From Candidatus Aminicenantes bacterium (GTDB lineage Bacteria; Acidobacteriota; Aminicenantia; Aminicenantales; UBA4085), in contig CAVSPT010000002.1 in assembly GCA_963729855.1 (NCBI GenBank), positions 10,012 to 74,011 of the forward strand: 64,000 nucleotides of DNA, written 5' to 3'. Every line of letters starts with the position of its first letter. The stretch's first letter is position 1. Below the pieces are notes generated by a model. It was not told the origin of the DNA. It did not search any database and worked only from the letters and a program-made list of their open reading frames with translations. Shown here piece after piece: positions 46,212-62,909 of this stretch. The position numbers were made by a program, and so were the translations under genes.

Positions 46212-46315
46212 GCCCGCTAGATTAGCGGAATTCAGCCCTCATTTCCACCAAAAGAAAAATGCCGTCATGACCGCCGGAAGTCTATTTTTTCCTTTATATC
46301 AATGCCCTGCGGGAC

Positions 46316-47302
46316 TCACAACTTCAATAAACGCTCCGCATTGCCATGAGCGATTTTTTCAAAGTCCGCAGGACCGACGGGAAGCCTGCCGAGAAATTCA
46401 CGGCCGCGTGCATTGGACGAATAGGGATAATCCACGGAAAAGAGAATGTGGTCGACGCCGATGACTCCAAGAGCGCAATTGAACGGCTGGATATCGAAGT
46501 ATCCGCTCGTCGTGATATAAAAATTCTCGCAAAAATATTCCATGAGCCGGCGTTTGAAAGGCCGCGGGCCGCCGTCGCCGGCCATCTCGCCAAAAACCCG
46601 GTCGGCTCGGGCCATATTGAACGGCAGGTGGTCTCCCATGTGTCCGACGACGATTTTGAGCTTGGGAAAACGATCGAAGACGCCGGAAAGCATAAGACGG
46701 AGACCATGGAGCCCGGTTTCCGCGTGCCATCCCCAGCCGGCCATGGAGAGCGCAAAACCCAGGTTGCCCGGCAAGCCGCTATAATAGGCATCCATCACCG
46801 GCCGGGGCGGAAAGCCGGGATGCACGTAGATGGGGACATCCAACGCCTGGGCGGTCTCGAAGATCGGCGTAAAACGCCGGTCGTCAAGAAAAACTCCGTT
46901 CATGGAGCCCATCACGATGGCGCCCTTGAATTTGAGCTTTTCGACGCACCGCTCGAATTCCATGGCGGCCTTTTCCGGCTCGTGAAGAGCCAGTGTGGCG
47001 AAAGCGGCAAAACGATCCGGATGATCCGAAACGGCGGCGGCCAGTTTTTCATTGGTGTCGTGCGCGAGCGCCCCGGCCGTCAGGGGATCCAGCTTGTCCA
47101 GCCCGGCCGCCGAAAGAGACAAGACCTGCACATCAATCTTGTCGGCATCCATGTCGGCGATCCGTCCTTCTCCGATATCCAACAGTTTGCGGGTCACCTC
47201 CGACATTCGATTTGGTCTTTTGTCATCGGCCTCATGGGCCTGCCCGGTTGTTTTCAAAAATTCGGGCGTCGTGATGTGTTCTTCCAAAGTGATCGTGCGC
47301 AT
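46316..47302 (-). CDS. Amidohydrolase-2 (ACMSD-like TIM-barrel metal-dependent hydrolase)
   Basis: Start at MRTITLEEH.. (ITLEEH is typical for PF04909), conserved HxH...H...D ligands; ORF-track start 47356 probably extended. Confidence 0.7.
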   Translation of the reverse strand: MRTITLEEHITTPEFLKTTGQAHEADDKRPNRMSEVTRKLLDIGEGRIADMDADKIDVQVLSLSAAGLDKLDPLTAGALAHDTNEKLAAAVSDHPDRFAAFATLALHEPEKAAMEFERCVEKLKFKGAIVMGSMNGVFLDDRRFTPIFETAQALDVPIYVHPGFPPRPVMDAYYSGLPGNLGFALSMAGWGWHAETGLHGLRLMLSGVFDRFPKLKIVVGHMGDHLPFNMARADRVFGEMAGDGGPRPFKRRLMEYFCENFYITTSGYFDIQPFNCALGVIGVDHILFSVDYPYSSNARGREFLGRLPVGPADFEKIAHGNAERLLKL

Positions 47303-47568
47303 GGGTTTATTATAATATGCGCCCTGGCCTGAACAAAGCGCGGGCGCGTTGTCCACATTGTCGGCTTATCCGGCTTTCTGCCGACGATCCATCGATCGAT
47401 CTCCGGGAGCGTCCGTGAACCGGCCGCCCGGAGCCCAAAATTCCCAACGTTATCGGGCGAAAACGCTTTTTAAGCCGCAAAGTCCGACCCTGCGGCCGAA
47501 CAAATCGACCTCAATCCCCTTCAGCCGTCTCTAAGGCTTCTCAATCCAACGATTGATCCGAGGGCTCC

Positions 47569-48117
47569 CTACCTCCCGACATATTGCGTGTGGACGTAGA
47601 CTCCGGTATGTACGTTATAGAGCAAATACCAACCGATGTGGTCCAGGTCCTCGTAAATGACGAAGTCATCTCCGCAGTCCCAGCACCAATCTTCGAAGAG
47701 GGGCCAATCCCAGGCGGCCAATTCAAAACAGAAGCCGTCCGGAAGCCAGAACCTATGAAGGTTGGCGTCAATCCGGGTGATTTGGTACCGGAACGTCGGC
47801 CCGAAATTCGCGAAGCGGCCGTTCGAAAACGGATGATCCAGGTGGAACCGGGCATCATTCGGTTGTTCGTGGCCGAACCACTGGTCGTGGTTGACATGCG
47901 GCGTGTCGTTCACATGGCCGGTGCGCAGGTGCTCCACCTGGCGCGGCACGCGAGTATCGGTCCTCGCCGGCGGCGCCGGCGGAATATGTCCCTGGTTCGC
48001 GCGCGGTCGATTATGGGACTGTTGCGCTCCCCGCTGCGCCGCGCTGGGCCGGGCCAGCAGCATAGCCAACGCTAGAACAAGGACGGATCCGAACAAGAGA
48101 GTCACTCTGTTTTTCAT
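47569..48117 (-). CDS. Secreted His/Trp-rich hypothetical protein
   Basis: 182 aa; signal peptide MKNRVTLLFGSVLVLALAMLLARPSAAQ; no recognisable family. Confidence 0.4.
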   Translation of the reverse strand: MKNRVTLLFGSVLVLALAMLLARPSAAQRGAQQSHNRPRANQGHIPPAPPARTDTRVPRQVEHLRTGHVNDTPHVNHDQWFGHEQPNDARFHLDHPFSNGRFANFGPTFRYQITRIDANLHRFWLPDGFCFELAAWDWPLFEDWCWDCGDDFVIYEDLDHIGWYLLYNVHTGVYVHTQYVGR

Positions 48118-48395
48118 GAATCGCTCCTTTCATGGCGCAAGGCCGAAAGCTTCAGTGATCGTGAGTGTTTAAGGCTGCCATTCGTATGAATTGAATATAC
48201 AAATACGGGAATAATCTGTCAAGAAAACCGGCCGCAAAACATTCCTTCAGAACCTGGGAATCGACCGCGCAAAGCCGGTCGCGGCCCGATTCCTCCCCTG
48301 ATTTTCAAGCCGGATGATCTTGGCTTCCTGGACTTCACGAAACCAACGATCTTCAAGGCCGCGGGCGGCTTCTCATAGAAGTCGGCCAGGGGGGC

Positions 48396-48898
48396 TCAAT
48401 AATAGCGGTCCATGGCCCGGTACTGGATGGCCTCGCTCAGATGGGCCGGACCAATCCTCTCCTCCCCCGCCAGGTCCGCGATCGTCCGGGCCACCTTCAA
48501 CGCGCGGTCGTAAGCCCGGGCGCTGAAACCGAGTTTGGTCACCGCCGCCTCCAACAACTTCTCCTCTTCGGCGCCGATGGGGCAGAACTTCTTCACCTCG
48601 CCCGGGCCCATCTGGGCGTTGGCGAAGATCCCCCGTCCTTTATAGCGTTCGACCTGGAGGGCCCGGGCCTCGCTCACCCGCTCGCGGACCGCCTCCGAAC
48701 CCTCTCCCTCCTGCTTGGAGACGATCTCCCGGAATTTGACCGCGGGGACCTCGGCCTGGATGTCGATTCGGTCAAGAAGGGGGCCCGAGATTTTGGAATA
48801 ATAGCGTCCTCTCTGGTGGTCGGTGCACTCGACGTCCCGTCCGCCCAGGCCTCTCAGGACGTCGGCGCAGGGTTGCGTTGCCGTACTGTCATTTAATC
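48396..48898 (-). pseudogene. comM: comM/yifB (Mg-chelatase-like AAA+ protein) 3' fragment, truncated by insertion
   Basis: Continuous minus-strand frame ...ATQPCADVLRGLGGRDVECTDHQRGRYYSKISGPLLDRIDIQAEVPAVKFREIVSKQ...KVARTIADLAGEERIGPAHLSEAIQYRAMDRYY* = YifB C-terminal domain; homology stops at ~48898, the N-terminal ~330 codons are absent. Confidence 0.75.
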
Positions 48899-49318
48899 TT
48901 GAAGGGAAATAAGCCGGTTCACAGGGAGAAATACCCTGATATTTGCAAAACGTGGGGCGACTGGATTCGAGCTCGGAGAATCGATTTGAAGCTCACAAAA
49001 GCCCAACTTTCCCTCAACCTTAATGTTTCGGACATTACGATATATCTTTGGGAACATAATCGAGTCCAGCCGTCTGTAACCCAAATTCCGAAGATTATTG
49101 AGTTCTTGGGACGAGATCCCTTCGAAGCAAATTCCGAAAATTTGGGGGACAAACTCAGATCATACCGGCGGCTGAACGGACTTTCTCAAAAGAAATTTGC
49201 TAAGCAACTGGGAGTCGATTTTACGACTCTGGCCGGATGGGAGAGAGGGGAACACTGGCCGTCGAAAAAGATGCTTGATAAAATCAAATCGGTCTTTTTA
49301 TCCTCCATGCCGAGCTGA
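48878..49318 (+). CDS. Tandem-HTH XRE-family transcriptional regulator (copy 1)
   Basis: 146 aa; two helix-turn-helix units (LKLTKAQLSLNLNVSDITIYLWEHNRVQPS and NGLSQKKFAKQLGVDFTTLAGWERGEHWPS); putative TTG start lies antisense inside the comM fragment. Confidence 0.6.
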   Translation: MPYCHLILKGNKPVHREKYPDICKTWGDWIRARRIDLKLTKAQLSLNLNVSDITIYLWEHNRVQPSVTQIPKIIEFLGRDPFEANSENLGDKLRSYRRLNGLSQKKFAKQLGVDFTTLAGWERGEHWPSKKMLDKIKSVFLSSMPS

Positions 49319-49428
49319 CCTGACCCCCTTCCCCAAATGCCCCTCTCGTCTTTTCCCCGAGTGTCTTGAAATAAAATCGATAAGCCGCCGCCGCCGCTCT
49401 TCCTCTCTACGGCTTGCCCGGGAGTTGA
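49171..49428. repeat. Direct repeat A (~260 bp, 3' end of the HTH gene plus ~110 bp downstream)
   Basis: >90% identical to 51289-51553. Confidence 0.7.
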
Positions 49429-49670
49429 TTGTCGTCTGAAGCGCGAGAGGATGGCTTTTGCTAAAGGTAATAGCATGGACTAGTTCGAGATCGTCGTTCT
49501 TGAAGCATTTGGAGAAGGCGTTTTTCTGCGTTCATTGCAAAAATGGCTTTAGGGCTCACAATGGAATAAAATATTAAAGACAAGCAGGTCTTCAGTATAC
49601 CTTCCAAAGGTTTCTCGACTGTCCAAACAATGGGCGCGGCTTCATTTCCTTAAAAGCATGACTTAAGACG

Positions 49671-51149
49671 ATGAAAATACTCTTGATTTATCCAAAGTAT
49701 CCAGACACATTCTGGAGTTTTAAGCATGCTTTGAAATTCATCTCAAAAAAAGCATCTTTCCCCCCTTTGGGCTTATTAACCGTTGCTTCCATGCTCCCCA
49801 AAGAATGGGAGAGAAAGCTTATTGACATGAACGTCTCGGTTTTAACCGAGGAAGATCTCGAATGGGCGGACTATGTCTTTATCAGCGCTATGGTCATTCA
49901 GAAAACCTCAGCCAGGGAAGTGATTAGAAGATGCAAGAAATTGGGAATCAAAATTGTTGCCGGCGGCCCTCTTTTTACCACCGGATATGAAGAATTTGAG
50001 GGCATCGATCATCTTGTTCTTAATGAAGCTGAGAATACGCTTCCGTCTTTTCTGGATGATTTAAAGAATGGATGCGCCCAATATATGTATACCTCTAAAG
50101 AGTGGCCAGATTTAGAAGGGACTCCCTGTCCACAATGGGACCTCATCAACATGAAAAAATACGCTTCCATGTGCATCCAATATTCCAGAGGCTGTCCCTT
50201 TAATTGTGAATTTTGTGACATTATTGTTCTCAATGGTCATAAACCACGGACAAAGAGTAAAGACCAGATTTTGGGAGAACTGGAAGTTTTATACGAACAA
50301 GGCTGGAGAGGCGGGGTGTTCTTTGTCGATGACAATTTTATAGGTAATACGAAAAGACTGAAAACGGAAATTCTTCCCGCTCTCATCGATTGGATGAAAG
50401 AGAAAAAATATCCTTTTTATTTTTTCACAGAAGCATCTATCAATCTATCTGATGATAAGAAGCTAATGCAATTAATGGTCAAGGCCGGATTTGAAAGGGT
50501 TTTTATCGGAATTGAAACGCCGAATGAAGATAGCCTCACAGAATGCAATAAATACCTGAATAAGAATCGTAACCTGATAGCTTGCGTAAAAAATATTCAA
50601 AACACCGGCCTAGAAGTTCAGGGGGGATTCATCGTAGGTTTTGATAATGATCCTCTTTCTATCTTTGAAAGACAGATAAGTTTTATTCAAAAGAGCGGAA
50701 TAGTCACGGCTATGGTTGGGTTGTTGAATGCACCGCCGGGGACAAAGCTTTTTCAGCGTCTAAAAAAAGAAGAAAGATTATTGGATGATCCCTCTGGTGA
50801 TAACACCGACTTTTCACTCAACTTCATCCCCAAAATGAATGCTGACGCACTCATGACTGGGTATAAGAAAATCCTCAATACGATTTATTCCCCTAGAGAC
50901 TATTATAAACGCGTGATAACATTTTTTAAGGAATATAAACCAATACGGATAAGAAAAAAGATCCATTTTAAATTTTGTTATATCAACGCATTCTTCAAAT
51001 CTATCTGGTTTTTGGGGATAAAAGGAAAAGAAAGATTGTACTATTGGAAACTTTTTTCCTGGACATTAGTAAGGCATCCCCGCTTTTTTCACTTAGCAAT
51101 CACACTCGCAATTTATGGTTTTCATTTTCAAAAAACTATGGCAGCTTAA
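49671..51149 (+). CDS. B12-binding radical SAM protein with C-terminal DUF4070-like tail
   Basis: 492 aa; N-terminal cobalamin-binding Rossmann-like region, CPFNCEFCD radical-SAM cluster motif, long C-terminal extension; low-GC codon usage. Confidence 0.85.
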   Translation: MKILLIYPKYPDTFWSFKHALKFISKKASFPPLGLLTVASMLPKEWERKLIDMNVSVLTEEDLEWADYVFISAMVIQKTSAREVIRRCKKLGIKIVAGGPLFTTGYEEFEGIDHLVLNEAENTLPSFLDDLKNGCAQYMYTSKEWPDLEGTPCPQWDLINMKKYASMCIQYSRGCPFNCEFCDIIVLNGHKPRTKSKDQILGELEVLYEQGWRGGVFFVDDNFIGNTKRLKTEILPALIDWMKEKKYPFYFFTEASINLSDDKKLMQLMVKAGFERVFIGIETPNEDSLTECNKYLNKNRNLIACVKNIQNTGLEVQGGFIVGFDNDPLSIFERQISFIQKSGIVTAMVGLLNAPPGTKLFQRLKKEERLLDDPSGDNTDFSLNFIPKMNADALMTGYKKILNTIYSPRDYYKRVITFFKEYKPIRIRKKIHFKFCYINAFFKSIWFLGIKGKERLYYWKLFSWTLVRHPRFFHLAITLAIYGFHFQKTMAA

Positions 51150-51288
51150 TTATTTTTGAATGAGTCGCTAATTCGCTCCGCTGTCTTTTCTTATTGCTGG
51201 GAAGCAGGAGTCCAAGAGCTTTGGGTTCTGTTCGCCTCATACTCATTTAAATTTCCTTTTTCCTTCAATGCCAAACGTTAATAAACCA

Positions 51289-51436
51289 GCTGAAGGGGCT
51301 TTCTCAAAAGAAATTCGCTGAGCAACTGGGAGTCGATTTTACGACTCTGGCCGGATGGGAGAGAGGGGAATACTGGCCGACGAAAAAGATGCTTGATAAA
51401 ATCAAATCGGTCTTTTTATCCTCCATGCCGAACTGA
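51289..51436 (+). pseudogene. 3' fragment (last ~48 codons) of a third XRE-HTH gene copy
   Basis: Begins abruptly at 51289; mosaic similarity (5' end like copy 2 at 60630, remainder like copy 1 at 49171); no start codon. Confidence 0.5.
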
Positions 51437-51553
51437 CCTGCCCCCCTTCCCCAAATATCCTTCTCGTCTTTTCCCCGAGTGTCTTGAAATAAAATCGATA
51501 AGCCGCCGGCGCCGCTCTTCCTCTCTACGACTTGCCCGGGATGGTGATCGTCT
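51289..51553. repeat. Direct repeat B (partner of 49171-49428)
   Basis: Direct comparison of the two sequences. Confidence 0.7.
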
Positions 51554-51656
51554 CTAAAACAAGAAAATGGCTGTGGCGATGACCGGATAGCCGAAGATCT
51601 CGTTCCACTGCGAAAAGCTACGGTTGGAAGTCAGGATCAAGGGCGCTCTAGATCAG

Positions 51657-52127
51657 CTATATTTTACGATGGATGTATTTTGTGTAATCCTTGATGACTG
51701 GGTGATATTCTTTCTTCATAAGAGGCGAAGAAATCATGAAATCCGCGGTCGAGCGATTGCAGGCGATGGGAATATTATAGACCACCGCGATTCGAAGGAG
51801 CGCTTTAACATCTACATCATGAGGCTGCGGTTCCATGGGGTCCCAAAAGAAAATGACGAAATCGATTCGACCCTCGGCGATCATTCCCCCGAGCTGCTGA
51901 TCCCCTCCGAGCGGACCCGACTTCAATTTGTTGATTTCAAAAGGCTCTTTTTTAATATGATCGCGCTCGAATTTTTTACTGATAATTTCCTCTACCAAGC
52001 GGCCCGTGGTCCCCGTGCAGACCAATTTATGTCGAACCAAGGTTCGATAGTTGAACTCGACCCATTCTCCGAGATCGGGTTTTCGATTATCGTGCGCCAC
52101 AAGAGCGATCGTCTTTATCCTTTCCAT
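51657..52127 (-). CDS. mgsA: Methylglyoxal synthase
   Basis: 156 aa; IALVAHD, CTGTTG, SGPLGGDQQLGGMIAEGRIDFVIFFWDP, PHDVDVKALLR nearly identical motifs to E. coli MgsA. Confidence 0.9.
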   Translation of the reverse strand: MERIKTIALVAHDNRKPDLGEWVEFNYRTLVRHKLVCTGTTGRLVEEIISKKFERDHIKKEPFEINKLKSGPLGGDQQLGGMIAEGRIDFVIFFWDPMEPQPHDVDVKALLRIAVVYNIPIACNRSTADFMISSPLMKKEYHPVIKDYTKYIHRKI

Positions 52128-52660
52128 AGAAAAAGCCTCCAGGTGGACTCAAAAATCTATTGCCGCCGATCTAGTAAGCAGAATTATATCGGGAAAAGGC
52201 ATGATCCCCAAATTCAATTGAAGAAAAATCCTAATCTATCAATGAGGCGCCACCCCCGCTACCCAGCGTCGCTATCCGGGCCCGGCCCCTCGGGCCCCGC
52301 CTCTTCCAAATCGACTTTAATCGATTTACAGAAACTCTTGAAATCCGCAAAGACGTTCTTTTGAATTGCGCCTTGGTTAACGGTTGTTTTTCCTAACTGA
52401 TCGAGATGATCTTCAACCCTCAATGGGTGGTTTGAATAAAAAATCACGAAGGCCGATGAAGGAATATTTTGTTTTGTTCGTTTTTATATTCTCGATGATA
52501 ATTTGGAGTAGTTCTTTTGATGAAGTCCCATATTCAGTTTCCGCATTCCTCCAAATCGTAAAGACAAGCGGCCCTCTGCTTGGAGTCTCATTATTCGTTA
52601 CCATCTTCCCCTTCCTTAAAAATCACTATCTCAACCCGGTCGCACTCCGGGCGGAATTCT

Positions 52661-53113
52661 CTAGGTCGACGAGATCAGCGTTTCTAACGTTTTGATATGG
52701 TTCTGGTCGCCGTTGGCGAGGGCCTGGAAAAGCCGCTGGAGATGAGCGTCTGAGACGACGAGGGAGGCTCCGATGTGGATTCTTTCGAACCTTTTCTCCA
52801 GACTGAGGAGCCATTTCAGGCCGGGGAGAAGGCCAAAATTTTTTTGGAGCCGATCGTGTAATTCCCGGCATTCTTGGAGGCCGAGATTCAATTCTTCTTC
52901 GTCGAAGTTCACGCCTAGGAATATACACGGGGCCTCTTTCAAAAAATTCTTGCCCATCTTGAGGGTTGAGGCGTGGTTGAGTTCTTCGTGGGAGATTTTG
53001 ATAAGCTTCTTTGAAATTGCGTCGTCATGCGTGAGCGTAGCGATCTTCCGGTAGAGCTCGGAGATTTGAGTCTCGATCTCGGTGCCGAGGGTTAGAAACT
53101 TTTCGAATTCCAC
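52661..53113 (-). CDS. Ferritin-like (diiron-carboxylate four-helix-bundle) protein, putative
   Basis: 150 aa, all-helical, paired E...ExxH motifs (EELNH, ERIH) as in ferritin-like superfamily; GTG start with GAGAAAGGGGG RBS. Confidence 0.4.
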   Translation of the reverse strand: MEFEKFLTLGTEIETQISELYRKIATLTHDDAISKKLIKISHEELNHASTLKMGKNFLKEAPCIFLGVNFDEEELNLGLQECRELHDRLQKNFGLLPGLKWLLSLEKRFERIHIGASLVVSDAHLQRLFQALANGDQNHIKTLETLISST

Positions 53114-53126
53114 GCGGCCCCCTTTC

Positions 53127-53240
53127 TCAGGAAGTTGCTTCTGCTTCTTCCTCGATCGTGATGTTAATGATCATACAGTACTCCGGGCGTTCGTCGTGGT
53201 CAATCATGGTGCCCATCTTGTAGTACCGGCAGTAGACCAT
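53127..53240 (-). CDS. 37-aa micro-ORF (MVYCRYYKMGTMIDHDERPEYCMIINITIEEEAEATS)
   Basis: ATG preceded by GGAGGGGGG; stops 14 nt before the ferritin-like gene start; two Cys, Tyr-rich N-half, acidic tail; below ORF-track cutoff. Confidence 0.2.
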   Translation of the reverse strand: MVYCRYYKMGTMIDHDERPEYCMIINITIEEEAEATS

Positions 53241-53311
53241 CCCCCCTCCGGATCTTTCCCGGCGGGCAGCTCGGGCAGGACGTCGGACGGAAGGCTGTTA
53301 TTAGCATAATC

Positions 53312-53494
53312 TCAAATAATTCTAATCTTGCAATACCATCCAAATAGCGCTTCCTTAATATTGATCGAACCTCGATTCTGGTCTTCCTCCATTATTTTTG
53401 CATTCGGGGCATCGGAAAAGGCTTCTTGATGAAGTTTCATGGAGGCAATAAAGCTGCGGATTGCTATTGCCTCTTCCCTTTCCCGCCTCTCCAA
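53312..53494 (-). CDS. 60-aa helical hypothetical protein
   Basis: ORF-track only; same strand and upstream of micro-ORF; competing 67-aa ORF on + strand (53439-53642). Confidence 0.2.
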   Translation of the reverse strand: MERREREEAIAIRSFIASMKLHQEAFSDAPNAKIMEEDQNRGSINIKEALFGWYCKIRII

Positions 53495-53942
53495 CTTGCA
53501 CTTGCTTTTTGTTGCTAAAACGGATGCCCTAACGATTGCTGGCTATATGAAGGCCTTGCTCGTCCTTAAAGAGATGCAGAAATCAGGGGAGATTGAAATT
53601 GTGGCGTTCCAAGGATTGAAGTCATGGATTCGTTCTTTGTGATAAAATATTTCTAGCTCTCGTTAGTCAGCTGGGGAGAGTCCTCCCATCAATCCCCCTT
53701 TTTGCCAACAGCCGGCAATATGTGTGCTCATAATTTGTTCGATTTCCCGAAAATTCACACAGGAACCTTATGATCGGAGCCCGTGGAACTTTGCCCTTCG
53801 AGTTTATTAGATCCTGAACGGAAAGATTAAAGGCAAACTGATAGCAGAAGAACTTATTTTTTATAAAACCGATCAATAATGTAATATGCGACTTTTTCCT
53901 TGTCAGGATGCGGGGCTTTCAAATCTTCCATCAATTTCGAGA

Positions 53943-53972
53943 TTGACTTGATGCAGAATCTCCTTTTATAAT
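53943..53972 (+). promoter_or_regulatory. Near-consensus sigma70 promoter (TTGACT-18-TATAAT) for nfeD-stomatin operon
   Basis: TTGACT 53943-48, TATAAT 53967-72, only 9 nt before the TTG start at 53982 (leaderless or very short leader). Confidence 0.5.
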
Positions 53973-53981
53973 GGAATCAAC

Positions 53982-55259
53982 TTGAGGGAAAAATATTTCG
54001 CTTTAATTTTTCTGGTTCTTTTCCCTGTTTTTTCTCCCGCCGCCATCCTGAAAATCACCGTTGACGCGGCCATCCATCCGGTGACATCCGAGTATATCCG
54101 CGATTCGATCGACCGCGCCGATAAAGAGAACGCCGGCCTTCTTATCATGACGCTCAACACGCCCGGCGGCCTGGATTCGTCGATGCGGGAGATCATCGAG
54201 AAGATTCTTTCGGCCAAAACGCCCATCGCCGCTTTCGTCAGCCCGAGCGGAGGCCGCTCCGCATCCGCCGGATTTTTCATCGGCATCGCCTGCGACCTTT
54301 TCATTATGGCGCCCGGAACCAACACCGGAGCCGCGCATCCCGTCGGCGTTTCGATTACGGGACAGTCCATGGACAAAACCATGGAGGATAAAGTCACGCA
54401 CGACGCGGCATCTTACATCAAGACGTTGGCTGAAAAACGCGGCCGCAACGTCCAGATGGCCGAGGACGCCGTCAGAAAAAGCCTGTCCTATACGGAAAAG
54501 GAGGCGCTCCAGGGAGGTCTCATCGATTTCATCGCGAAGAATGAGCAGGAAATCATCGACGCCTTCGATCAAAAGACCATCGGACGTTTCCATGGCGACA
54601 CCGTCGTCCTCCGTCTCAAACAAGAGCCGGTGATCAGCGTGGACATGTCCGCCCGGCAGAAATTTCTTCTGACGATTTCCAACCCCAACCTTGCCTACAT
54701 CCTGCTCATGATCGGCCTGCTCGGGTTGTATTTTGAATTCGCCAATCCCGGCGCCGTTCTCCCCGGGATCCTGGGCGGCATCTCGCTTCTCCTGGCCATT
54801 TTTTCGTTCCAAATCCTGCCTATCAATTACGTCGGCCTGATTCTCATTCTTTTGGCTATGGCCCTGTTTATTCTGGAGGTCAAGGTGCACAGCTTCGGCG
54901 CCTTTTCAATCGGTGGCATCATCGCCCTGGTCATCGGCTCGATGATGCTCATCAAGGCCCCGATTCCCGAGCTCCGGCCGAGCCTCCGGATCATCATCCC
55001 CGTAGCGCTTGGCATCTCCCTGATCCTTATCTTCCTCGTCTATCTCGTCATCCGGGCCCAGGCCCGCCGGTCGCTCACCGGAAAGGAAGGAATGGTCGGG
55101 GAAATCGGGACCGCCCGGACCGACCTCACCTCCGAGGGGAAGGTTTTCGTCCACGGCGAACTCTGGGAGGCGGAGGCGGTCGAGCCCATTAGTGCGGGCG
55201 AAAAGGTGCGGATCGTCGAGGTCCTTAAGACCCTAAAAATCAAGGTTAAAAAAGCTTGA
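53982..55259 (+). CDS. NfeD-family membrane-bound ClpP-class serine protease
   Basis: 425 aa; signal peptide, ClpP-like domain with GGLDSS...GAAHPVG, C-terminal TM bundle and OB-fold. Confidence 0.8.
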
Positions 55260-55305
55260 CCTATACGATAATGGGAGGCCTTACGGTCTCGGCAAGGAGA
55301 AAAAA

Positions 55306-56067
55306 ATGGAAAGTTACCCGGTCATCGTCGTCGCCCTCATCGTCCTTTATATCCTGGGTTCGATCAAGATCCTGAGAGAATACGAGCGCGGAGTCATTTT
55401 TCGGCTCGGCCGCGTCCTGCCTAAGCCCAAAGGGCCCGGCATCATCTTGGTCTTCTTCCCGATCGACCGCATGGTGAGAATCAGCCTGCGACTCATCACG
55501 ATGGCCATCCCCCCCCAGGATGTCATCACAAAGGACAATGTCACGGTGAAGGTCAACGCCGTTCTCTACTTCAGGGTCATCGACCCGCTCAAATCCGTGA
55601 TTGACGTGCAGGATTATCTCAACGCCACCTCCCAGTTGGCACAGACGACCCTGCGCAGCGTCCTCGGCCAGGTTCCGCTCGACGACCTCCTCTCGGAGCG
55701 GGATAAATTGAACACCCGCATCCAGGCCATCATCGAGCAGCACACCGACCCCTGGGGCATCAAAGTCCAGCTCGTGGAGATGAAACAGGTGGACCTTCCG
55801 GAGAACATGGTCCGGGCCATCGCCAAACAAGCCGAGGCTGAACGGGAACGCCGGGCCAAGGTCATTCACGCCGAAGGCGAATTCCAGGCCGCCGATAAAC
55901 TCCTCCAGGCCGCCAACATCATTTCTACAAATCCGCAGGCTCTCCAGCTCCGATTCCTAGGCACCTTGACGGAGATTGCCGCGGAAAAAAATTCGACGAT
56001 CATCTTTCCTCTCCCCATGGAGCTCTTGAAAGCCTTCACCTATGAAAAAAAGCAGGAGGACAAATAG
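55306..56067 (+). CDS. SPFH/band-7 (stomatin/slipin-like) protein
   Basis: 253 aa; N-terminal TM, SPFH core, classic nfeD-stomatin operon partner; AAGGAG RBS. Confidence 0.85.
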
Positions 56068-56713
56068 GGCCCAGGACAAAAGAGATGCCAGATCGCGAAT
56101 TTAAATTCTCGAGCACCTAGTTCGTCGTCGTCTTCATTGTCATCCTGGTCCAGAGTGTTTTCATCTTCTTGATCGAATTTTTGGTCGTCAAAAAAACAGG
56201 TTGATCTTTCGGCAGGTGTTTGTCGTCAGGCGGTTTCGGACTCGCGAGCTGACTTCTTAAGCTACAGGTTCCTGGTCTCATAATATTTTAACTGACGCCG
56301 TTTGGCAAGGCTTCAAGAATCGCCATCCGGTTCAACTCCCTCCTCATCTTCATGGTCTCCTGGCGGACATTTTCCCACTTTTTCAAGATCACGCGGTCCC
56401 GTCCGTAATACTTGTCTGGACGATAAATTAAGCTGCCGCTTTTGCGCGAGCCCAGAGGTACGGCTATGGGAAGCCGTCCTAACGATCCGCTTTGTAAAGC
56501 GGTCTGTAGGCGGCCCAGCTAGAGAAATGAAATGCCAAGTCTATCGCTGCTAGGATTGCGGCAGGAATTTCGATGAGGTTGAAGCCGAAGGAAAAAAATA
56601 ATCCTAAAGTCGGGCCCACGTTCTCCTAATCGTTTTTTCTTCCCTTAGCCAAGAAAAAAGCCGACGTTACGCATATGATTATCCCCAAATATATCTGAGC
56701 AAAAAGATATTTA

Positions 56714-56865
56714 GCTCCTAGAATTGCCCCTAAGATTAGGGCAAGTCCTAGGAGCCTGTCGGAAAACCCCCTATTTCCGGGGTTTTCCCTTAAATGGCAT
56801 GAAGAAAATAAACGATTTACGCAACGAATAACCCGAAATTATGAGGTAATCCGACAGGCTCCTAG
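56714..56865. repeat. Nested palindromes: imperfect ~42-bp palindrome (56714-56755) and perfect 16-bp inverted repeats (56748-56763 / 56850-56865)
   Basis: gctcctagaattgcccctaagattagggcaagtcctaggagc; ctaggagcctgtcgga ... tccgacaggctcctag enclosing hairpin aaaaccccc..ggggtttt. Confidence 0.6.
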
Positions 56866-57209
56866 AAAGCAGAAAAAAACGATTACATATCTTTGCGCGT
56901 TTTTCATTATTCCCCCCTCTTTAGAATTTCCCGGTTTAGCTTTAGGTAATCTTCGGCCCCGTGGCTATTCGGCGCATAGACGAAAATATCTTGTCCGTAG
57001 CTCGGGGCTTCCGCTAATGCGGCCAGCGTGACCTTGCGTATGCATTCCCAAATCATTGTTGGAGCACCCCGAGGCCGAGCGACCATAGCAGTATAACAAT
57101 AATCGATTGGAACACAAGAATTTAAGGCCTTTGAAGACCCTTGCCGTCACCGGCCGGGCCCGCTATACACCTTCAACCCGCCCAAACTGTCTAACCGTTA
57201 GGGGACACC

Positions 57210-58832
57210 TCACAATCCGTTGGTGAAGCTTCTGAGCGTCTTCGACCGGCTTGGATGCTTAAGCTGGCGCAGAGCCTTGGCCTCGATCTGACGAATGCGC
57301 TCTCGGGTGAGCTTGAACTGCTGGCCAACTTCCTCCAGGGTATGATCGTTCCCGCCGCCCAGGCCGAAGCGCATCTTGAGGATCTTCGCCTCGCGCTCGG
57401 TCAAGCTTCTTAGAGCCTCCTCGATTTTTTCGCGCAGATTGATATGGATAACGGTGTCAGGAGGCGAGAGCATGACCTTGTCTTCGATGAAGTCGCCGAG
57501 GTGGCTGTCCCCCTCCTCGCCGATGGGCGTTTCGATGGAGAGAGGCTGCTTAACGGTCTTGATGATTTTGCGAACCTTGCTCGCCGGCAGGTCCATTTTC
57601 TTGGCAATTTCCTCGCTGGTCGGCTCGCGGCCGATCTCCTGAACGAGCTGGCGGCTGACCCGGTTGAGCTTGTTAATGATATCGATCATATGGACCGGGA
57701 TGCGGATCGTGCGGGCCTGATCGGCGATGGCCCGGGTGATGGCCTGGCGGATCCACCATGTGGCGTAAGTCCCGAACTTAAATCCACGGCGGTATTCGAA
57801 CTTGTCGACAGCCTTCATGAGGCCCATGTTGCCCTCCTGGATGAGGTCCAGGAACTGCAAGCCGCGGCTGGAATATTTCTTGGCGATGGAGACAACCAGC
57901 CGGAGGTTGGCGGCGACGAGTTCTTTTTTGCCCTGGTCGCTGATCTTCTTCCCGGTAGTGATGGAGCGGATGATCTTTCGTAGATTGGGCAAATCAAGCC
58001 CGATGTCCGTTTGTATGGTCCGGATTTGCTTCTGCAGTTCCTGGAGCTTTTCGGACAGGTCTTCACCGTCCTTCTTTTTCCGGGTCTTGGCCAGGAGCAG
58101 CTCGATTTCCTCTTTTTTCTCGTCCAGTTGGTTGACGACGTGGAGCCAGCGGCGGAGGGTTTCAATGATCCTTTCCGTCTGGATTGTTCGAAATTTGAGA
58201 TGCCGAATGGATCTCGATATCTCGACGATGACGCGGCTTCGGGCGAGAGCCTTCTTCCGGTTTTTAGGGATCTTGTCCAACTTCCGGCTCAGGTTGTGGA
58301 TCTTTCGGACCTTGGCCAGGATTTGGTTTTTCTTTTCCTCGAGTTTGCCCTCGGCGATGGCGTCTTCGGAAATGTCAAACATCTCCTGGATGATCATCGG
58401 ATTGGCTTCAATTCGTTCTTCAAGGGACAGGACTTCGTTGAGGACCAGACGGGTCTTGCTGAGGGCCTTGATGATGGTTTTTTCGCCACGCTCGATTTCG
58501 CGGGCGATGGAGATCTCGCCTTCCCGGGTCAGCAGGCTGATATTGCCCATCTCCTGGAAGTAGAGCTTGACCGGGTCGGTCGTCCGCTCCAGCTCCTGAG
58601 TTGTCAGCAGCTCGTTCTTACGCTGGCGGGGTGCAACTTTGCGCTGTTTCTGGTCGAGGATTTTGATCCCGTAGCCATCGATCGAAGAGAGGAAATCGTC
58701 GAAATTCCCCTCCGTTTCGCGCGCGTCCTGGAAGGCCTTGTCGATATCATCAAAAAGAAGATAGCCCTGCTTGCGGCCCTTGGAGATGAGCTCCGATATC
58801 CCGTTTTTGGGAAGTTTAGTGTCGGCCGGCAC
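57210..58832 (-). CDS. rpoD: Second full-length primary-type sigma70 (RpoD paralog/xenolog)
   Basis: 540 aa colinear with the 7753-9408 RpoD (~85% aa identity; regions 2.4 and 4.2 essentially identical) but nucleotide sequence diverged and lower GC. Confidence 0.9.
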
Positions 58833-58893
58833 ATGGCACTCCTCACCGCTACGTTTCGCCCTTCAAAGAAAATACACCTTGACCCGAATTTGT

Positions 58894-58904
58894 TTAGTAT
58901 ACCA
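58894..58904 (-). promoter_or_regulatory. Putative extended -10 promoter (TGgTATACT) of island rpoD
   Basis: Minus-strand tggtatact ~60 nt upstream of ATG with GAGGAG RBS. Confidence 0.35.
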
Positions 58905-58937
58905 CCGGAGAAGTGAAAGTTATAGGCTCCAATACCT

Positions 58938-60000
58938 CTAGAGCTGGAGTCCATCGCCTATTGGCTTGGGCGATGGGGACCTCTCCGCTACAGAGGTCAG
59001 CCTCGGATGATCGATGATCCGATCCACGATGGCATACCCCGTGATGAAAGCGACGACCTTCCTCCTCCTCCTGCACTGGGGGCATCCCATCGGGATGATC
59101 CAGTAACGGTCGCGATCGCTGGGGGCGTTTCCTGACCTGGAATGACCGGTATCTGAAACCAAAATCCTGGGGAGACGCGCGGCCGCTTCAGACTGATCCG
59201 AGTCGGACATGAGTTCCGCGATAAGCTCCTTGACCGTCACGATCTTATTGATCCGGTAGGCGTTATGGCCGCAGAAGATCAGACCGTTATCGACATCCCC
59301 CATAAAGGAATTGACGAGGGCCAGGGCGATGCAATATCTGGCCTCGGCGACCTTACAGGCAGTCAGACAGCGGTAATCACACTTGATCTGGAGCTTGTCC
59401 ACGACCTCGAGCTTTTTCAGGAACTTGTCCCGGATAGCCCGCCCGGGCATTCCGACGGGACTCTTGATAATGCTGTTCCAGGGAGAATCCCAAGTGTCCC
59501 CCCGCCAAAGGACCTTCCAAAATCAGGGCGTCGGCCGTCCGGGCGAAGCGTTTTTCCCACGATCTCAGGATCAATTCGGCGACCCGTCCAGAGCTAACAA
59601 TGGGAACGAGGTTGACCGATGGGTCCTCGACAAGGCCGGGCAGTTTGGCTGGCAGACCGGCCCCATACACGATCATTTTGATGCCTTCCCGAACCGCGGT
59701 CAGGATCAGGTCGTCCACGTTGCTGAGCACGCCCATAAAATTGACGGCCAGGTTGCCATCCGTCGAGCTTTTGGCTTTGCGGATCTCCGATTCCAGGGCT
59801 TCCCGGGATGCTTTTTCGTATTCGTTCTTGGAGGCTTCGGGGTCGCCCAGGCCGATGCTGGATATGGTGCCAACGGCCCCTTCCCGGGCGACGGCCGCGG
59901 CCAGGGAAGAGAGCGAGACCCGCACGCCCATCCCGCCCTGGACGATGGGGATGTCGGCGGTGATGCTGCCGATTTTAAGCTTGGAGATTTTCATCTCCGC
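58938..60000 (-). pseudogene. Nitronate monooxygenase / FabK-like (NMO family) gene with internal frameshift
   Basis: N-terminal IPIVQGGMGVRVS...EGPLAGGHLG in ORF 59377-60285, C-terminal NMO residues continue in a different frame (ORF 58938-59450); frames overlap 59377-59450. Confidence 0.65.
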
Positions 60001-60300
60001 CTCCAGGAGTTTCTCCCCATCCGGACCGATGGGGCAGAACGCCTTCACTTCGCACGGCCCCATCTGGGCATTGGCGTAGATCCCGCGGCCTTGGAACCGC
60101 TCAATCTGTCGCCGCCGGGCCGCCTCGACTCTCGACCGGATCGAGGCCGAGCCCTCCCCTTCCTGTTTAGAGACGATCTCCCGGAACGGCACGCTGGGGA
60201 CTTGCCTGGATATCGATGCGGTCGAGCAAAGGGCCCGAGATTTTCGAGTAATAGCGGGCTCTCTGATGATCCGTGCACTCGTCATCGCGTCCGCCCGCCC
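59995..60300 (-). pseudogene. comM: Second internal comM/yifB fragment (~300 bp), frameshifted, fused upstream of the NMO gene
   Basis: Nucleotide similarity to 48556-48900; encodes ..CTDHQRARYYSKISGPLLDRIDIQ.. then 2-nt deletion relative to copy 1. Confidence 0.65.
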
Positions 60301-60330
60301 CCGCCCGCATCACGTTGGCGCAGGGTTGCG

Positions 60331-60780
60331 TTGCCCTTTTGCCATTTAACCTTAAAGGGAAAAAGACCGGTCCACAGAGAGAAATACCCTGATATTTGTC
60401 GGACGTGGGGCGACTGGATTCGGGCTCGCAGGATCGATTTGAAGCTCACCAAAGCCCAACTTTCCCTCAAGCTTAATGTTTCGGACATTACGATATATCT
60501 CTGGGAGAAGAATAAAGTCCAGCCGTCCTTGGCCCAGATTCCAAAGATTATCGAATTCCTGGGCCGCGATCCGTTTGAAGCTGAAGCCGGAAGCCTGGCT
60601 GAAAAACTCAAAAACTATCGCCGGGTGCAGGGGCTTTCTCAAAAGAAATTCGCTGAGCAACTGAAGGTCGATTTTACAACCTTGGCCGGGTGGGAGAGAG
60701 GGATACATGAACCGTCAAAAAGACTTCTAAACAAGCTAATCGCCGCAATAAGCTTTTCTAAACGTAAGGAAGCTATTTGA
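60331..60780 (+). CDS. Tandem-HTH XRE-family transcriptional regulator (copy 2)
   Basis: 149 aa, ~80% identical to 48878-49318 copy; same TTG-start position relative to the comM fragment. Confidence 0.6.
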   Translation: MPFCHLTLKGKRPVHREKYPDICRTWGDWIRARRIDLKLTKAQLSLKLNVSDITIYLWEKNKVQPSLAQIPKIIEFLGRDPFEAEAGSLAEKLKNYRRVQGLSQKKFAEQLKVDFTTLAGWERGIHEPSKRLLNKLIAAISFSKRKEAI

Positions 60781-60885
60781 ACCCATATTTCCCAAATAGA
60801 AATCAAAACTTGTTATAATATTAGCTGAAAAGGCTGATGAATAAAGGCTGATGGCGATATTAAAGCAGAAAAACGGAGAGACCTG

Positions 60886-61212
60886 ATGGGTGAGAGCAAA
60901 AAAGAGGTCTTGCGGGTCCAGTTTGACCCCAGTGTGAAGCTGGAATTCCAGGGCGCAAAAATAACCAGTGATGGCGGTCTGCTGCTTTTCAGAGAGATGG
61001 ATGAAGTGATGGGATTGACGGTTTTGGCCGAGAAAATTCTTCAGGATCCGCGCACGGGCCAGAATACCTAGCACACGATGACGGCATTGCTTCGCCAAGC
61101 GGTATATGGACGGTTGGCCGGATACGAGGATACCAATGACGCCGAGCGGCTGCGAGTCGACCCGGCCCTGCAATGGGAGAATTCAATCTGTGATGGAGGA
61201 ATCAGGTGGCTT
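60886..61212 (+). pseudogene. IS1380-family transposase N-terminal remnant
   Basis: KITSDGGLLLFREMDEVMGLT ... (TAG at 61069) ... ALLRQAVYGRLAGYEDTNDAERLRVDPALQ = conserved N-terminal motifs of IS1380 transposases; only ~108 codons, in-frame stop, remainder deleted. Confidence 0.7.
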
Positions 61213-61259
61213 TGATCGGTCATATGGGAAATCCCGGTTAAAATATGGAGGATTAAACA

Positions 61260-62765
61260 ATGGCAGTTGAACCAGCATCAAGCATGAGCACGCCAGATTT
61301 CGGCGCCCTCGTCGCCCGTCACCGCAACTACTTCTTGTCGGGCGCGACCCGCTCTGCGGAATGGCGAAAAACCCAGTTGATCGCATTGCGGTCGATGATG
61401 AAGGACCACGCCGAGGAGTTCTACGCCGCGTTGTGGACGGACCTCCGCCGCAACCGGACCGACGCGGATTGGACTGATGTGAAGTACATGACCAGCGAGA
61501 TCGACCACGTGCTTGCTCACCTTCGGCGATGGATGAAGCCGCTAGCGGTGAGCACGCCTCTTGTTCTGACACCATCCCACGCGCAGGTGCAGTTCGATCC
61601 TCTCGGGGTCGGGCTGATTATCGGCACGTGGAACTATCCAGTGATGATGGTACTGTCACCGTTAGTCTCGGCGATTTCCGCGGGGAACGCAGCTGTTATC
61701 AAGCCATCGGAAGTATCTCTAGCCACCGCCGAAGTGATCGCACGGCTCGTCCCCGAGTATCTGGACCGCAACGCGTTTTCAGTAGTCCTCGGCGCGATAC
61801 CCGAGACTACGGCACTACTGGAGCAGCAATGGGACCACATCTTTTTTACAGGTGGCTCGACCGTCGCCAAGGTGGTCATGACCGCGGCAGCGAAACATTT
61901 GACCCCAGTCGTGCTCGAACTGGGCGGGAAGAATCCCACCATCGTGCACTCCTCAGCCAACCTGCGCGTCGCGGCGCACCGCATCGCTTACGGGCGCTGG
62001 TTTAATTCCGGCCAGACGTGCACGGCGCCGGACTATGTCCTCGTGTTCAAGGACGTTGCCAAGGCATTTCTAGGACACCTGAAAGAAACGTTGCTTCAGT
62101 TCTACGGAGAGGATCCGCAGAAAAGCCCGGATTATGGCCGGATCGCCAGTTCCCATCACTTTGACCGTCTGACGAAGCTGCTCAGCAGCGGGACGATCTT
62201 TCATGGTGGGCAGCACGACGGGACGGACCGTTTTATCGCGCCAACGGTGCTGGTCAACGTGTCGCCGGACTCGCCCGCAATGCAGGAAGAGATTTTCGGC
62301 CCCATCCTACCGGTACTGGAGGTCGCCGACGTTCGGGAAGTGATCGACTTCGTCAACGCGCGGCCGAGCCCTCTCGGTCTGTACTTGTTCTCTGACGATC
62401 GGTCCGTAACCGAGCAGATCCTGAACTCAACGACATCGGGGGATGCCTGCGTCAACGACTGCACCCTTCAGCCGATCCTCCATGATTTGCCATTCGGCGG
62501 CGTCGGCAACTCCGGAATGGGCAAATATCACGGCGAGTGGGGATTCCGTACGTACACAAACGCGCGCGGTGTTCTGTACCACAGCACGCGACTCGACTCA
62601 GCCGTCCGTTATCCTCCTTACGACCGTAACCAGAGGCTGCGGGAATTTGTGTTAAAGAGTGCTTCGATGGCTCCAAAATTACGAGCTTCTCTTGGCTCGT
62701 ACCGGATTCCACTCGATTCGGAGATCATCGAAGGCTTAATCGAAGACAACCGACTTCACCAATGA
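61260..62765 (+). CDS. NAD(P)-dependent aldehyde dehydrogenase (ALDH3-like)
   Basis: 501 aa; ELGGKNP, catalytic Cys in GQTCTAPDY, GGAGG RBS. Confidence 0.85.
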   Translation: MAVEPASSMSTPDFGALVARHRNYFLSGATRSAEWRKTQLIALRSMMKDHAEEFYAALWTDLRRNRTDADWTDVKYMTSEIDHVLAHLRRWMKPLAVSTPLVLTPSHAQVQFDPLGVGLIIGTWNYPVMMVLSPLVSAISAGNAAVIKPSEVSLATAEVIARLVPEYLDRNAFSVVLGAIPETTALLEQQWDHIFFTGGSTVAKVVMTAAAKHLTPVVLELGGKNPTIVHSSANLRVAAHRIAYGRWFNSGQTCTAPDYVLVFKDVAKAFLGHLKETLLQFYGEDPQKSPDYGRIASSHHFDRLTKLLSSGTIFHGGQHDGTDRFIAPTVLVNVSPDSPAMQEEIFGPILPVLEVADVREVIDFVNARPSPLGLYLFSDDRSVTEQILNSTTSGDACVNDCTLQPILHDLPFGGVGNSGMGKYHGEWGFRTYTNARGVLYHSTRLDSAVRYPPYDRNQRLREFVLKSASMAPKLRASLGSYRIPLDSEIIEGLIEDNRLHQ

Positions 62766-62909
62766 CGTCATGGACAAAGCGGACTGAATGGAGATCGAAA
62801 GGATATGCTTATTTCCGGCTTTACTTCTATACGCAGCAAGATGAGATATATGATTTAATAGGTCAATTGCTTTTTCGAAGTGATCCGTCGATGACGAGGA
62901 TGAATTCAC

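Follow-up and report, generated by a model that had tools for sequence, protein, structure and literature searches.

Putative genomic islands stacked by repeated insertion at one codon of comM in Aminicenantes

The comM gene encodes a helicase used in natural transformation. In a Candidatus Aminicenantes bacterium and its relatives it appears to be the target of a family of genomic islands that enter at one exact codon and bring with them a replacement for the 3' end of the gene which they displace. The evidence comes from a 64,000-nucleotide stretch of contig CAVSPT010000002.1 (assembly GCA_963729855.1), referred to here as the window, and from a comparison set of 45 fetched loci (numbered L001 onwards); a scan restricted to one genome per species gave 36 loci. 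The window probably represents the left side of a composite island which arose by repeated insertion at a single point in comM, and its organisation indicates at least two successive insertions of foreign islands at one exact comM codon. An earlier note, made from the window sequence, had proposed that related elements integrated one after another at a single comM site, each carrying a regulator next to its attachment (att) site, and the comparative evidence supports this proposal.

The signature of these insertions is a module in which a 3' piece of comM, on the reverse strand, abuts a forward-strand gene for an XRE-type regulator with two helix-turn-helix (HTH) domains. That the module is present twice, as had been claimed, is borne out by pairwise alignment: copy 1 (48545-49270) and copy 2 (59995-60725) form a single collinear block of ~730 bp with 81-83% identity, and no similarity between the copies was found outside this block. 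Repeat finding recovers the pairs 48859-49158/60312-60611 (83% identity), 48539-48749/59991-60201 (73%) and 48754-48846/60204-60296 (83%). The copies have diverged by 17-19%. The regulator genes, XRE1 (48878-49318, 146 aa) and XRE2 (60331-60780, 149 aa), both have TTG start codons; their products share 75% amino-acid identity and the ratio of non-synonymous to synonymous substitution rates (dN/dS) between them is 0.137.

The comM piece of copy 1, W1 (48396-48872, reverse strand), runs from a Pro-Cys codon pair to the stop codon at 48396 with its reading frame intact. Its translation gives a full-length match to Pfam Mg_chelatase_C (positions 1-94 of 94, E 7.5e-34) together with the end of Mg_chelatase, and its GC content at third codon positions (GC3), 0.83, is like that of host genes. 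The piece in copy 2, W2 (59995-60325, reverse strand), starts at the same Pro-Cys codons. Here, a 2-nt deletion shifts the frame, the last ~50 codons are gone and only positions 1-57 of Mg_chelatase_C are matched; a nitronate monooxygenase gene begins at ~59995 and cuts the piece short there. Between W1 and W2, dN/dS is 0.146 and dS is 1.1.

A 104-kb ENA contig from a related genome (L043) contains a full-length comM and no XRE gene. The 8.2 kb downstream of this comM is 82.5% identical to window positions 46236-38231 and has the same flanking genes, so that L043 preserves the unoccupied site. Homology between L043 and the window breaks off at the Asn|Pro-Cys codons of comM; the TTG codon of XRE is 6 nt away. 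Read in the comM sense, the junction in the window is ...GGCAACGCAA|CCCTGC... and the unoccupied sequence is ...GCCATGAAT|CCCTGC...; the extended reads are ...GCCATGAAT|CCCTGCGAC... for L043 and ...GGCAACGCAA|CCCTGCGCC... for the window. Alignments with L043 and with four full-length comM genes place the boundary between comM-derived and element-derived DNA at 48873-48877. The earlier note was thus correct in setting the TTG start at the edge of the comM homology. Its further claim, that the N-terminal codons of XRE are antisense to comM, does not hold, as homology to the intact L043 gene ends at Asn|Pro-Cys; an apparent extension of W1 (AYFPS) is missing from the family consensus, and the idea was rejected.

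The 3' part of comM in L043 is 81.6% identical to W1 and 74.9% identical to W2, compared with 82.5% for the host flank. As both its divergence from L043 and its GC3 are host-like, W1 is taken to be the 3' end that originally belonged to the host and that the first insertion displaced. W2 is interpreted as the replacement end imported with the first unit and displaced, in turn, by the next insertion.

Complete islands are found in four genomes (L010, L014, L017 and L020), where XRE is followed, 2-8 kb to its right, by a full-length comM (506-508 aa). In each case the target gene is intact, and the island's distal end carries a direct repeat of the gene's 3' end. The match between the fragment and the closing comM begins at Pro-Cys and ends 0-2 nt from the stop codon, with no homology beyond, at identities of 98.1% (L010), 86.9% (L014), 98.4% (L017) and 96.2% (L020). 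No conserved motif was found past the comM stop codon among 19 copies compared. Since the fragment copies comM exactly from Pro-Cys to the stop codon, and the changes are mostly synonymous, the islands evidently supply a comM 3' end of their own, which takes the place of the resident one. The L014 copies are instructive: of 62 differing positions 55.5 are synonymous, with a dN/dS of 0.022 and a dS of 0.82, which argues that both evolved as working gene ends in separate lineages. These lineages would be about as far apart as sister genera, one of the two copies having been imported. The closing comM is followed by a conserved mglA-like GTPase gene in L014, L017 and L020, and glycosyltransferase genes are also found there in L014 and L017. 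The replacement comM end was not among the points made in the earlier note, nor was the lack of a visible integrase in the window.

The junction is not confined to these genomes. The search of other genomes for comM-adjacent tandem-HTH XRE genes, which the earlier note had suggested, yielded ~20 Aminicenantes loci in which a comM 3' fragment abuts XRE in identical register, with low-GC, highly variable cargo beyond. A left flank consisting of amino-acid permease and amidohydrolase genes is common to the window and 7-8 of the loci. To the right of XRE, the GC content drops from ~0.6-0.66 to 0.37-0.5 in every locus, and it recovers at the full-length comM. The same junction position is seen in three other lineages (L022, L032 and L033), the hosts being another acidobacterial metagenome-assembled genome (MAG), an Ignavibacteria MAG and a Bacteroidota MAG; the break again immediately precedes the first Cys of the NPC/CPCG motif, beside distant XRE homologues (38-45% identity). 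The recurrence of a codon-exact break in such distant lineages argues for site recognition rather than homology alone.

Tandem accretion is seen in several loci besides the window, and arrays are found in closed long-read genomes and in a 205-kb contig. L009 (a closed long-read chromosome) and L016 have two modules each, with 78-88% identity. L040/L041 have two full modules and 3-4 remnants. In the JGI contig Ga0643846_0000009, two full modules lie 5.66 kb apart and are accompanied by the tail of a comM and three more XRE fragments. Over 210 pairs of modules, comM identity correlates poorly with that of the adjacent XRE part (r 0.26); in L009, for example, the comM parts are 96.6% identical and the XRE genes only 78.7%. 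This uncoupling at the junction fits a joining of the two parts there. When the 158-aa W1 fragment is compared with the protein database, the 120 best matches are all open reading frames (ORFs) of 145-274 aa, with recurring lengths of ~150, 153, 162, 165 and 170 aa, and none is the ~506-aa ComM. Stranded ComM C-terminal ORFs are thus very abundant and mostly intact.

A mechanism can be proposed in which the element, as a circle, would consist of a replacement comM 3' end (Pro-Cys to stop, ~475 bp), cargo, and an XRE gene starting 6 nt from the comM piece; its joined ends would then read from comM Pro-Cys to stop, through the cargo, to XRE. Recombination at or next to Asn|Pro-Cys would join the 5' part of the host comM to the 3' end supplied by the element, leaving comM intact and stranding the resident 3' end beside XRE, on the opposite edge of the island. 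If another element then entered the restored comM, the step would be repeated and the units would be stacked, giving the order host comM 3' end, XRE1, cargo 1, element-1 comM 3' end, XRE2, cargo 2 and so on up to comM. Applied to the window, W1 would be the host's original end, the first unit would extend from 48878 to 60325 and the second would begin at 60331. Later decay, including the frameshift and 3' truncation of W2 and the XRE tail at 51289, would have blurred the units. The right end of the island lies outside the window, in which the position of the comM 5' part is not visible; the latter is presumed to lie beyond the 64 kb.

The crossover would be carried out by a site-specific recombinase acting at the junction, an interpretation favoured because the codon-exact break argues for site recognition. 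The favoured source of such an enzyme is supply in trans, or by autonomous relatives such as those encoding a large serine recombinase, most of the islands being non-autonomous. In L002 and in Ga0643846_0000009, XRE heads a larger element encoding a type IV coupling protein, a RuvC-like protein, HTH_36 and a large serine recombinase; the large serine recombinase is seen in L002 and L042. No comM sequence was found beside the serine recombinase in L002, L042, L044 or L046, and three further contexts of serine recombinase homologues have no comM or XRE within range. A role for the serine recombinase in insertion is, accordingly, a circumstantial one. Downstream of this gene, L042 (11799-19400) and L044 (9339-19271) share a backbone of a PD-(D/E)XK nuclease, a 123-aa ORF, a second TrwB-like coupling protein and bPH_2, with a weak match to DUF932 in L044 only. 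Between recombinase and backbone lie SMODS, HEPN and AbiTii in one of these contigs and Trypsin_2 in the other, and the region looks like a hotspot for defence cargo.

Several observations weigh against this interpretation of the window and its relatives. The four complete small islands encode no recombinase. No recombinase family was found among the window proteins with Pfam or NCBIfam, and none recurs among 68 cargo proteins searched with Pfam; an integrase encoded by the element next to its att site is seen neither in the four complete islands nor in the window. Where the serine recombinase does occur, it is 7-19 kb from XRE and the junction, neither at the end of the element nor beside comM, and serine recombinases normally need no long homology between attP and attB. 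W1, supposedly the oldest displaced end, is intact, whereas the younger W2 is degraded. The 5' part of comM is absent from the whole of the window, and also from the 4.9 kb that a related contig (L038) adds past the window end. Finally, an RpoD-type sigma factor encoded in the first unit passes the NCBIfam RpoD cut-off and would be unusual as mobile cargo.

A first alternative is that the same islands are inserted without any dedicated recombinase. A copy of the element, circular or linear, that bears the 475-bp comM arm together with XRE would enter the cell by transformation or conjugation and be inserted by host homologous recombination, much like a suicide plasmid carrying the 3' fragment of a gene, and arrays would form when the arm pairs with the full-length gene rather than with a fragment. 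Such a scheme accommodates the lack of a recombinase in all four complete islands and of a recurring one in the cargo, as well as the 96-98% identity between fragment and full-length comM in three genomes. A tract of the L014 comM copies (positions 45-187) is 97% identical inside copies that are otherwise 80-82% identical, indicating homologous exchange, and the radical SAM segment of the window (described below), bracketed by 253-bp repeats and without a recombinase, has the same insertion-duplication geometry on a smaller scale. However, the breakpoint is codon-exact even in lineages whose ComM proteins are only ~50% identical, which fits site recognition better; W1 and W2, and likewise the L014 copies, differ by 13-25% and would be poor RecA substrates; and the coupling between the comM and XRE parts is lost exactly at the junction. 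On balance, homology-driven insertion is considered unlikely, though still a serious contender.

It is similarly doubtful that the recombinase-less islands spread by means of the portable 475-bp comM arm and the adjacent XRE alone. Were this so, host homologous recombination might insert them once the DNA has been taken up, and the islands would then live as parasites on the transformation pathway in which ComM itself works. By another route, the XRE protein might recruit a host recombinase to the Asn-Pro-Cys site of comM. The conserved first 14 codons of XRE, and the frozen codons described below, would then be cis-acting DNA. The stranded ComM C-terminal ORFs, too, might be expressed and interfere with ComM.

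A second alternative holds that the modules are resident paralogues produced by segmental duplication, or the relics of one ancient event, rather than scars of insertion. The module does occur in many Aminicenantes at the same locus, with the permease and amidohydrolase flank shared by 7-8 of them. Against this, W1 and W2 differ from one another as much as they do from the modules of other genomes (74.5% identity for comM, 80.5% for XRE; dS ~1), the site is unoccupied in L043, and the cargo between modules is different in every genome. Nor would a dead ancient fragment keep a dN/dS of 0.02-0.15 and an open frame in ~17 of 21 cases. This explanation is largely refuted and can be regarded as very improbable. 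The least credible alternative is an assembly artefact, either a false duplication, a possibility which the earlier note had raised, or a chimeric join of a 64% GC genome to a ~52% GC genome through the module. It might be suspected from the fall in GC from ~0.65 to 0.38-0.57 exactly at 48.9 kb and from two JGI contigs (L038 and L039) whose overlap with the window is confined to 62855-64000. The worry over a chimera is removed by the same GC drop in closed long-read chromosomes (L006, L009, L017 and L020), with recovery at full-length comM. The divergence between copies is too great for collapsed or duplicated reads, an independent Logan contig (L001, run ERR11594402) is 100% identical to 49361-51323 across both junctions of the middle repeat, and the left flank and W1 are equally diverged from L043.

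XRE is the conserved left-end gene of the island family. The protein has 383 homologues at 60-77% identity, of which those with a named source are all from Aminicenantes or Acidobacteriota. Many of them are located on short contigs, as is typical of repeats. No relative of the family was found in IMG/VR, among PLSDB plasmids or among GenBank phages, and an extrachromosomal form was not found. Pfam HTH_3 matches XRE1 twice (E 5e-21). An AlphaFold model (mean predicted local distance difference test score, pLDDT, 78; 86-91 for residues 20-80 and below 50 for residues 1-14) has as its best PDB matches the DNA-binding domains of P22 c2, 434 Cro and ImmR, and also HipB. Pfam and the predicted structure thus agree on a Cro/CI-type helix-turn-helix fold, and the model comprises two such domains with no catalytic domain. 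By analogy with other integrative elements, the protein is most likely the repressor of the element.

The gene itself has an unusual pattern of conservation. In codons 16-21 and 34-50 (48923-48939 and 48977-49030) synonymous sites are almost invariant across 22 copies, with CCT, CTT and GTT each present in 22 of 22 and a dyad, CAGGGAGAAATACCCTG, whereas the second HTH domain shows ordinary synonymous variation. The first 14 codons are conserved, yet they are predicted to encode an unstructured segment. RNA structure was considered as the cause of the frozen sites and rejected, since the RNAalifold covariation term was -0.48 kcal/mol with one compensatory pair in 23; Rfam had no match between 46 and 64 kb of the window. 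In addition to encoding protein, the 5' region probably serves as a DNA site, whether operator or recombination arm. Elements of the IMEX type, which exploit Xer, were also considered. XRE has a weak match to the NCBIfam VC1465 Xer activation factor family (26.5 bits against a cut-off of 70), the single piece of evidence for such a relationship; the target lies inside comM, not at dif.

To the right of copy 1, a third piece of the XRE gene is present. The tail of XRE1 (codons 98-146) and 105 nt downstream of it form a direct repeat, R1 (49171-49423, forward strand), which is 95% identical to R2 (51289-51541, forward strand), a 253-bp sequence made up of an XRE 3' fragment and 105 nt. The third HTH-gene fragment that had been described at 51289 is therefore real and larger than was claimed, ending at 51541 rather than at 51436. 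R1 and R2 bracket a 1.9-kb radical SAM segment (49424-51288, forward strand, GC 38%) containing a B12-binding radical SAM gene (49671-51149; Pfam B12-binding, Radical_SAM and DUF4070; GC3 0.41). R2 could be either the remnant of a third XRE module or a displaced XRE tail. XRE 3' fragments are found to the right of an intact XRE in L006, L013, L032, L040 and L041 as well, so the 3' end of XRE may itself be a recurrent breakpoint.

The same fragment had been taken as a chimaera of copies 1 and 2 and thus as a sign of recombination between them. The switch in state is real: the fragment resembles copy 2 at four consecutive informative sites (49177-49202) and copy 1 at more than 50 later ones. However, most of the states shared with copy 2 are codons found in the majority of XRE family members, and recombination between the two copies therefore does not follow. 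The switch would be explained equally well by a third lineage of XRE genes or by four changes derived in copy 1, and the case for inter-copy recombination from the 51289 fragment is a weak one.

The cargo of the first unit (51542-59994), identified with Pfam and NCBIfam, has a GC3 of 0.55-0.78, compared with ~0.87 in the host flank. It encodes a methylglyoxal synthase (51657-52127, reverse strand) that passes the NCBIfam equivalog cut-offs and has a GC3 below that of the host, a 150-aa ORF (52661-53113, reverse), NfeD (53982-55259, forward), an SPFH/Band 7 protein (55306-56067, forward) and the RpoD-type sigma factor (57210-58832, reverse; NCBIfam NF004208, 609.6 bits against a cut-off of 555), which also has a GC3 below that of the host. 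Last comes the nitronate monooxygenase (58938-59993, reverse), split by a frameshift into two overlapping ORFs, with its start codon fused to the truncated end of W2. The cargo of the second unit begins at 60781 and can be followed to 62854; it includes an aldehyde dehydrogenase (61260-62765, NCBIfam). Exact-protein look-ups returned no record for the window XRE, RpoD, SPFH and aldehyde dehydrogenase proteins, the radical SAM protein alone being on record. Across islands the cargo is heterogeneous, the 68 proteins hitting 99 Pfam families. Elsewhere it includes PAS/HD sensors, ABC transporters, radical SAM enzymes, Mrr and PD-(D/E)XK nucleases and MGS-domain proteins, one of the last being encoded in the L010 island.

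Smaller features are scattered among and around these genes. In the gap between the SPFH and sigma factor genes, 56748-56865 is a 118-bp element with inverted repeats, CTAGGAGCCTGTCGGA...TCCGACAGGCTCCTAG (40-nt arms, 80% complementary), which occurs just once in the window; it could be a miniature inverted-repeat element. Downstream of XRE2, the segments 60782-60881 and 61172-61240 align, at 81-90% identity, with one unbroken stretch of L004 (10411-10571), from which it follows that the intervening ~290 bp (60882-61171) are an insertion in the window. Contigs Ga0209226_10000016 and Ga0209746_1006459, found in JGI metagenomes by means of an exact 40-mer, are 97.5% identical to the window over 62855-64000 (L038 6175-7320; L039 2537-3682) and unrelated to it left of 62855. 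This breakpoint lies 55 bp upstream of a 567-aa ORF and may be another island boundary or mark a recently transferred gene. On the other side of the island, the interval from the permease gene to the comM stop codon (46236-48395) contains an amidohydrolase-like ORF and a 182-aa secreted ORF with a GC3 of 0.66-0.73, compared with ~0.87 for the host. It has no counterpart in L043, where CopG-like and SDH_alpha-like ORFs are found instead, and it is a second variable spot just past comM.

Elements of this general kind are known. Phage 21 and e14 at E. coli icd, and islands at tRNA and tmRNA genes, supply a substitute 3' end for their target, and the displaced end remains as a distal direct repeat. 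The comM islands resemble them in inserting within a conserved gene, keeping it intact and leaving a direct repeat at the far end. They differ in their target and in replacing ~475 bp (158 codons); moreover, the complete islands have no integrase adjacent to att, and the far-end gene is always XRE, 6 nt from the junction. Prochlorococcus tycheposons are reportedly cargo-island arrays bounded by partial copies of the target, many of them without their own integrase, with tRNA targets and tyrosine or other integrases; arrays at a conserved site are common to both, while the target is different.

As a landing site comM is also known from Acinetobacter, where it is preferred by the Tn7-like transposons AbaR and Tn6022. 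These carry TnsABC-type genes, have terminal inverted repeats, generate short target duplications and inactivate comM. According to the usual account, insertion in comM shuts down natural transformation and thereby guards the element against curing. The comM islands share this preference for the gene, show none of these transposon features and restore comM instead. Their boundaries are long direct repeats, and no transposase family was found in the Pfam hits of the window cargo, among the 25 most frequent of the 99 cargo families or in 20 individually tabulated proteins.

In Dehalococcoides, tandem, low-GC islands at the single-copy ssrA gene have grown by accretion; some have a large serine recombinase (CcrB-like) and others are integrase-less and 'cis-mobilizable', with a 20-bp repeat of the tmRNA gene and a six-gene integration module at attL (PMC3146451). 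The comM islands are likewise tandem units, each bounded by a direct repeat of the 3' end of the target. Unlike those at ssrA, however, their repeat is 475 bp of coding sequence and the att-proximal gene is a regulator rather than a recombinase, with a circumstantial link to a recombinase. In Wolbachia, prophage WO of the sr1WO type, a large serine recombinase element with characteristic HTH_XRE regulators, is inserted in a gene of the magnesium chelatase family, to which comM belongs (PMC9203015). WO, which is a phage, splits the gene, leaving pieces on either side and supplying no replacement end. In the comM islands no phage structural genes were seen, no recombinase abuts a split target, and the 475-bp homology is present.

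The family therefore differs from known systems in the long coding end that is replaced, in the repair of comM, in the presence of XRE at every junction and in the lack of a visible integrase nearby. No description of it was found in literature searches on comM integration, which returned mostly noise. While the kind of element is known, the comM-island family itself is new.

If this interpretation is correct, a widespread family of islands hits comM at one exact codon and yet repairs the gene with a 158-codon end of its own. The comM locus would thereby become a growing stack of foreign cargo, comprising defence genes, sensors, metabolic genes and a sigma factor. It offers a clean attB/attL pair with which to find the recombinase responsible, as well as a test case for whether long-homology, integrase-free insertion occurs naturally. 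For the little-studied, uncultured Aminicenantes lineage, it provides an easily recognised hotspot at which gene flow may be tracked.

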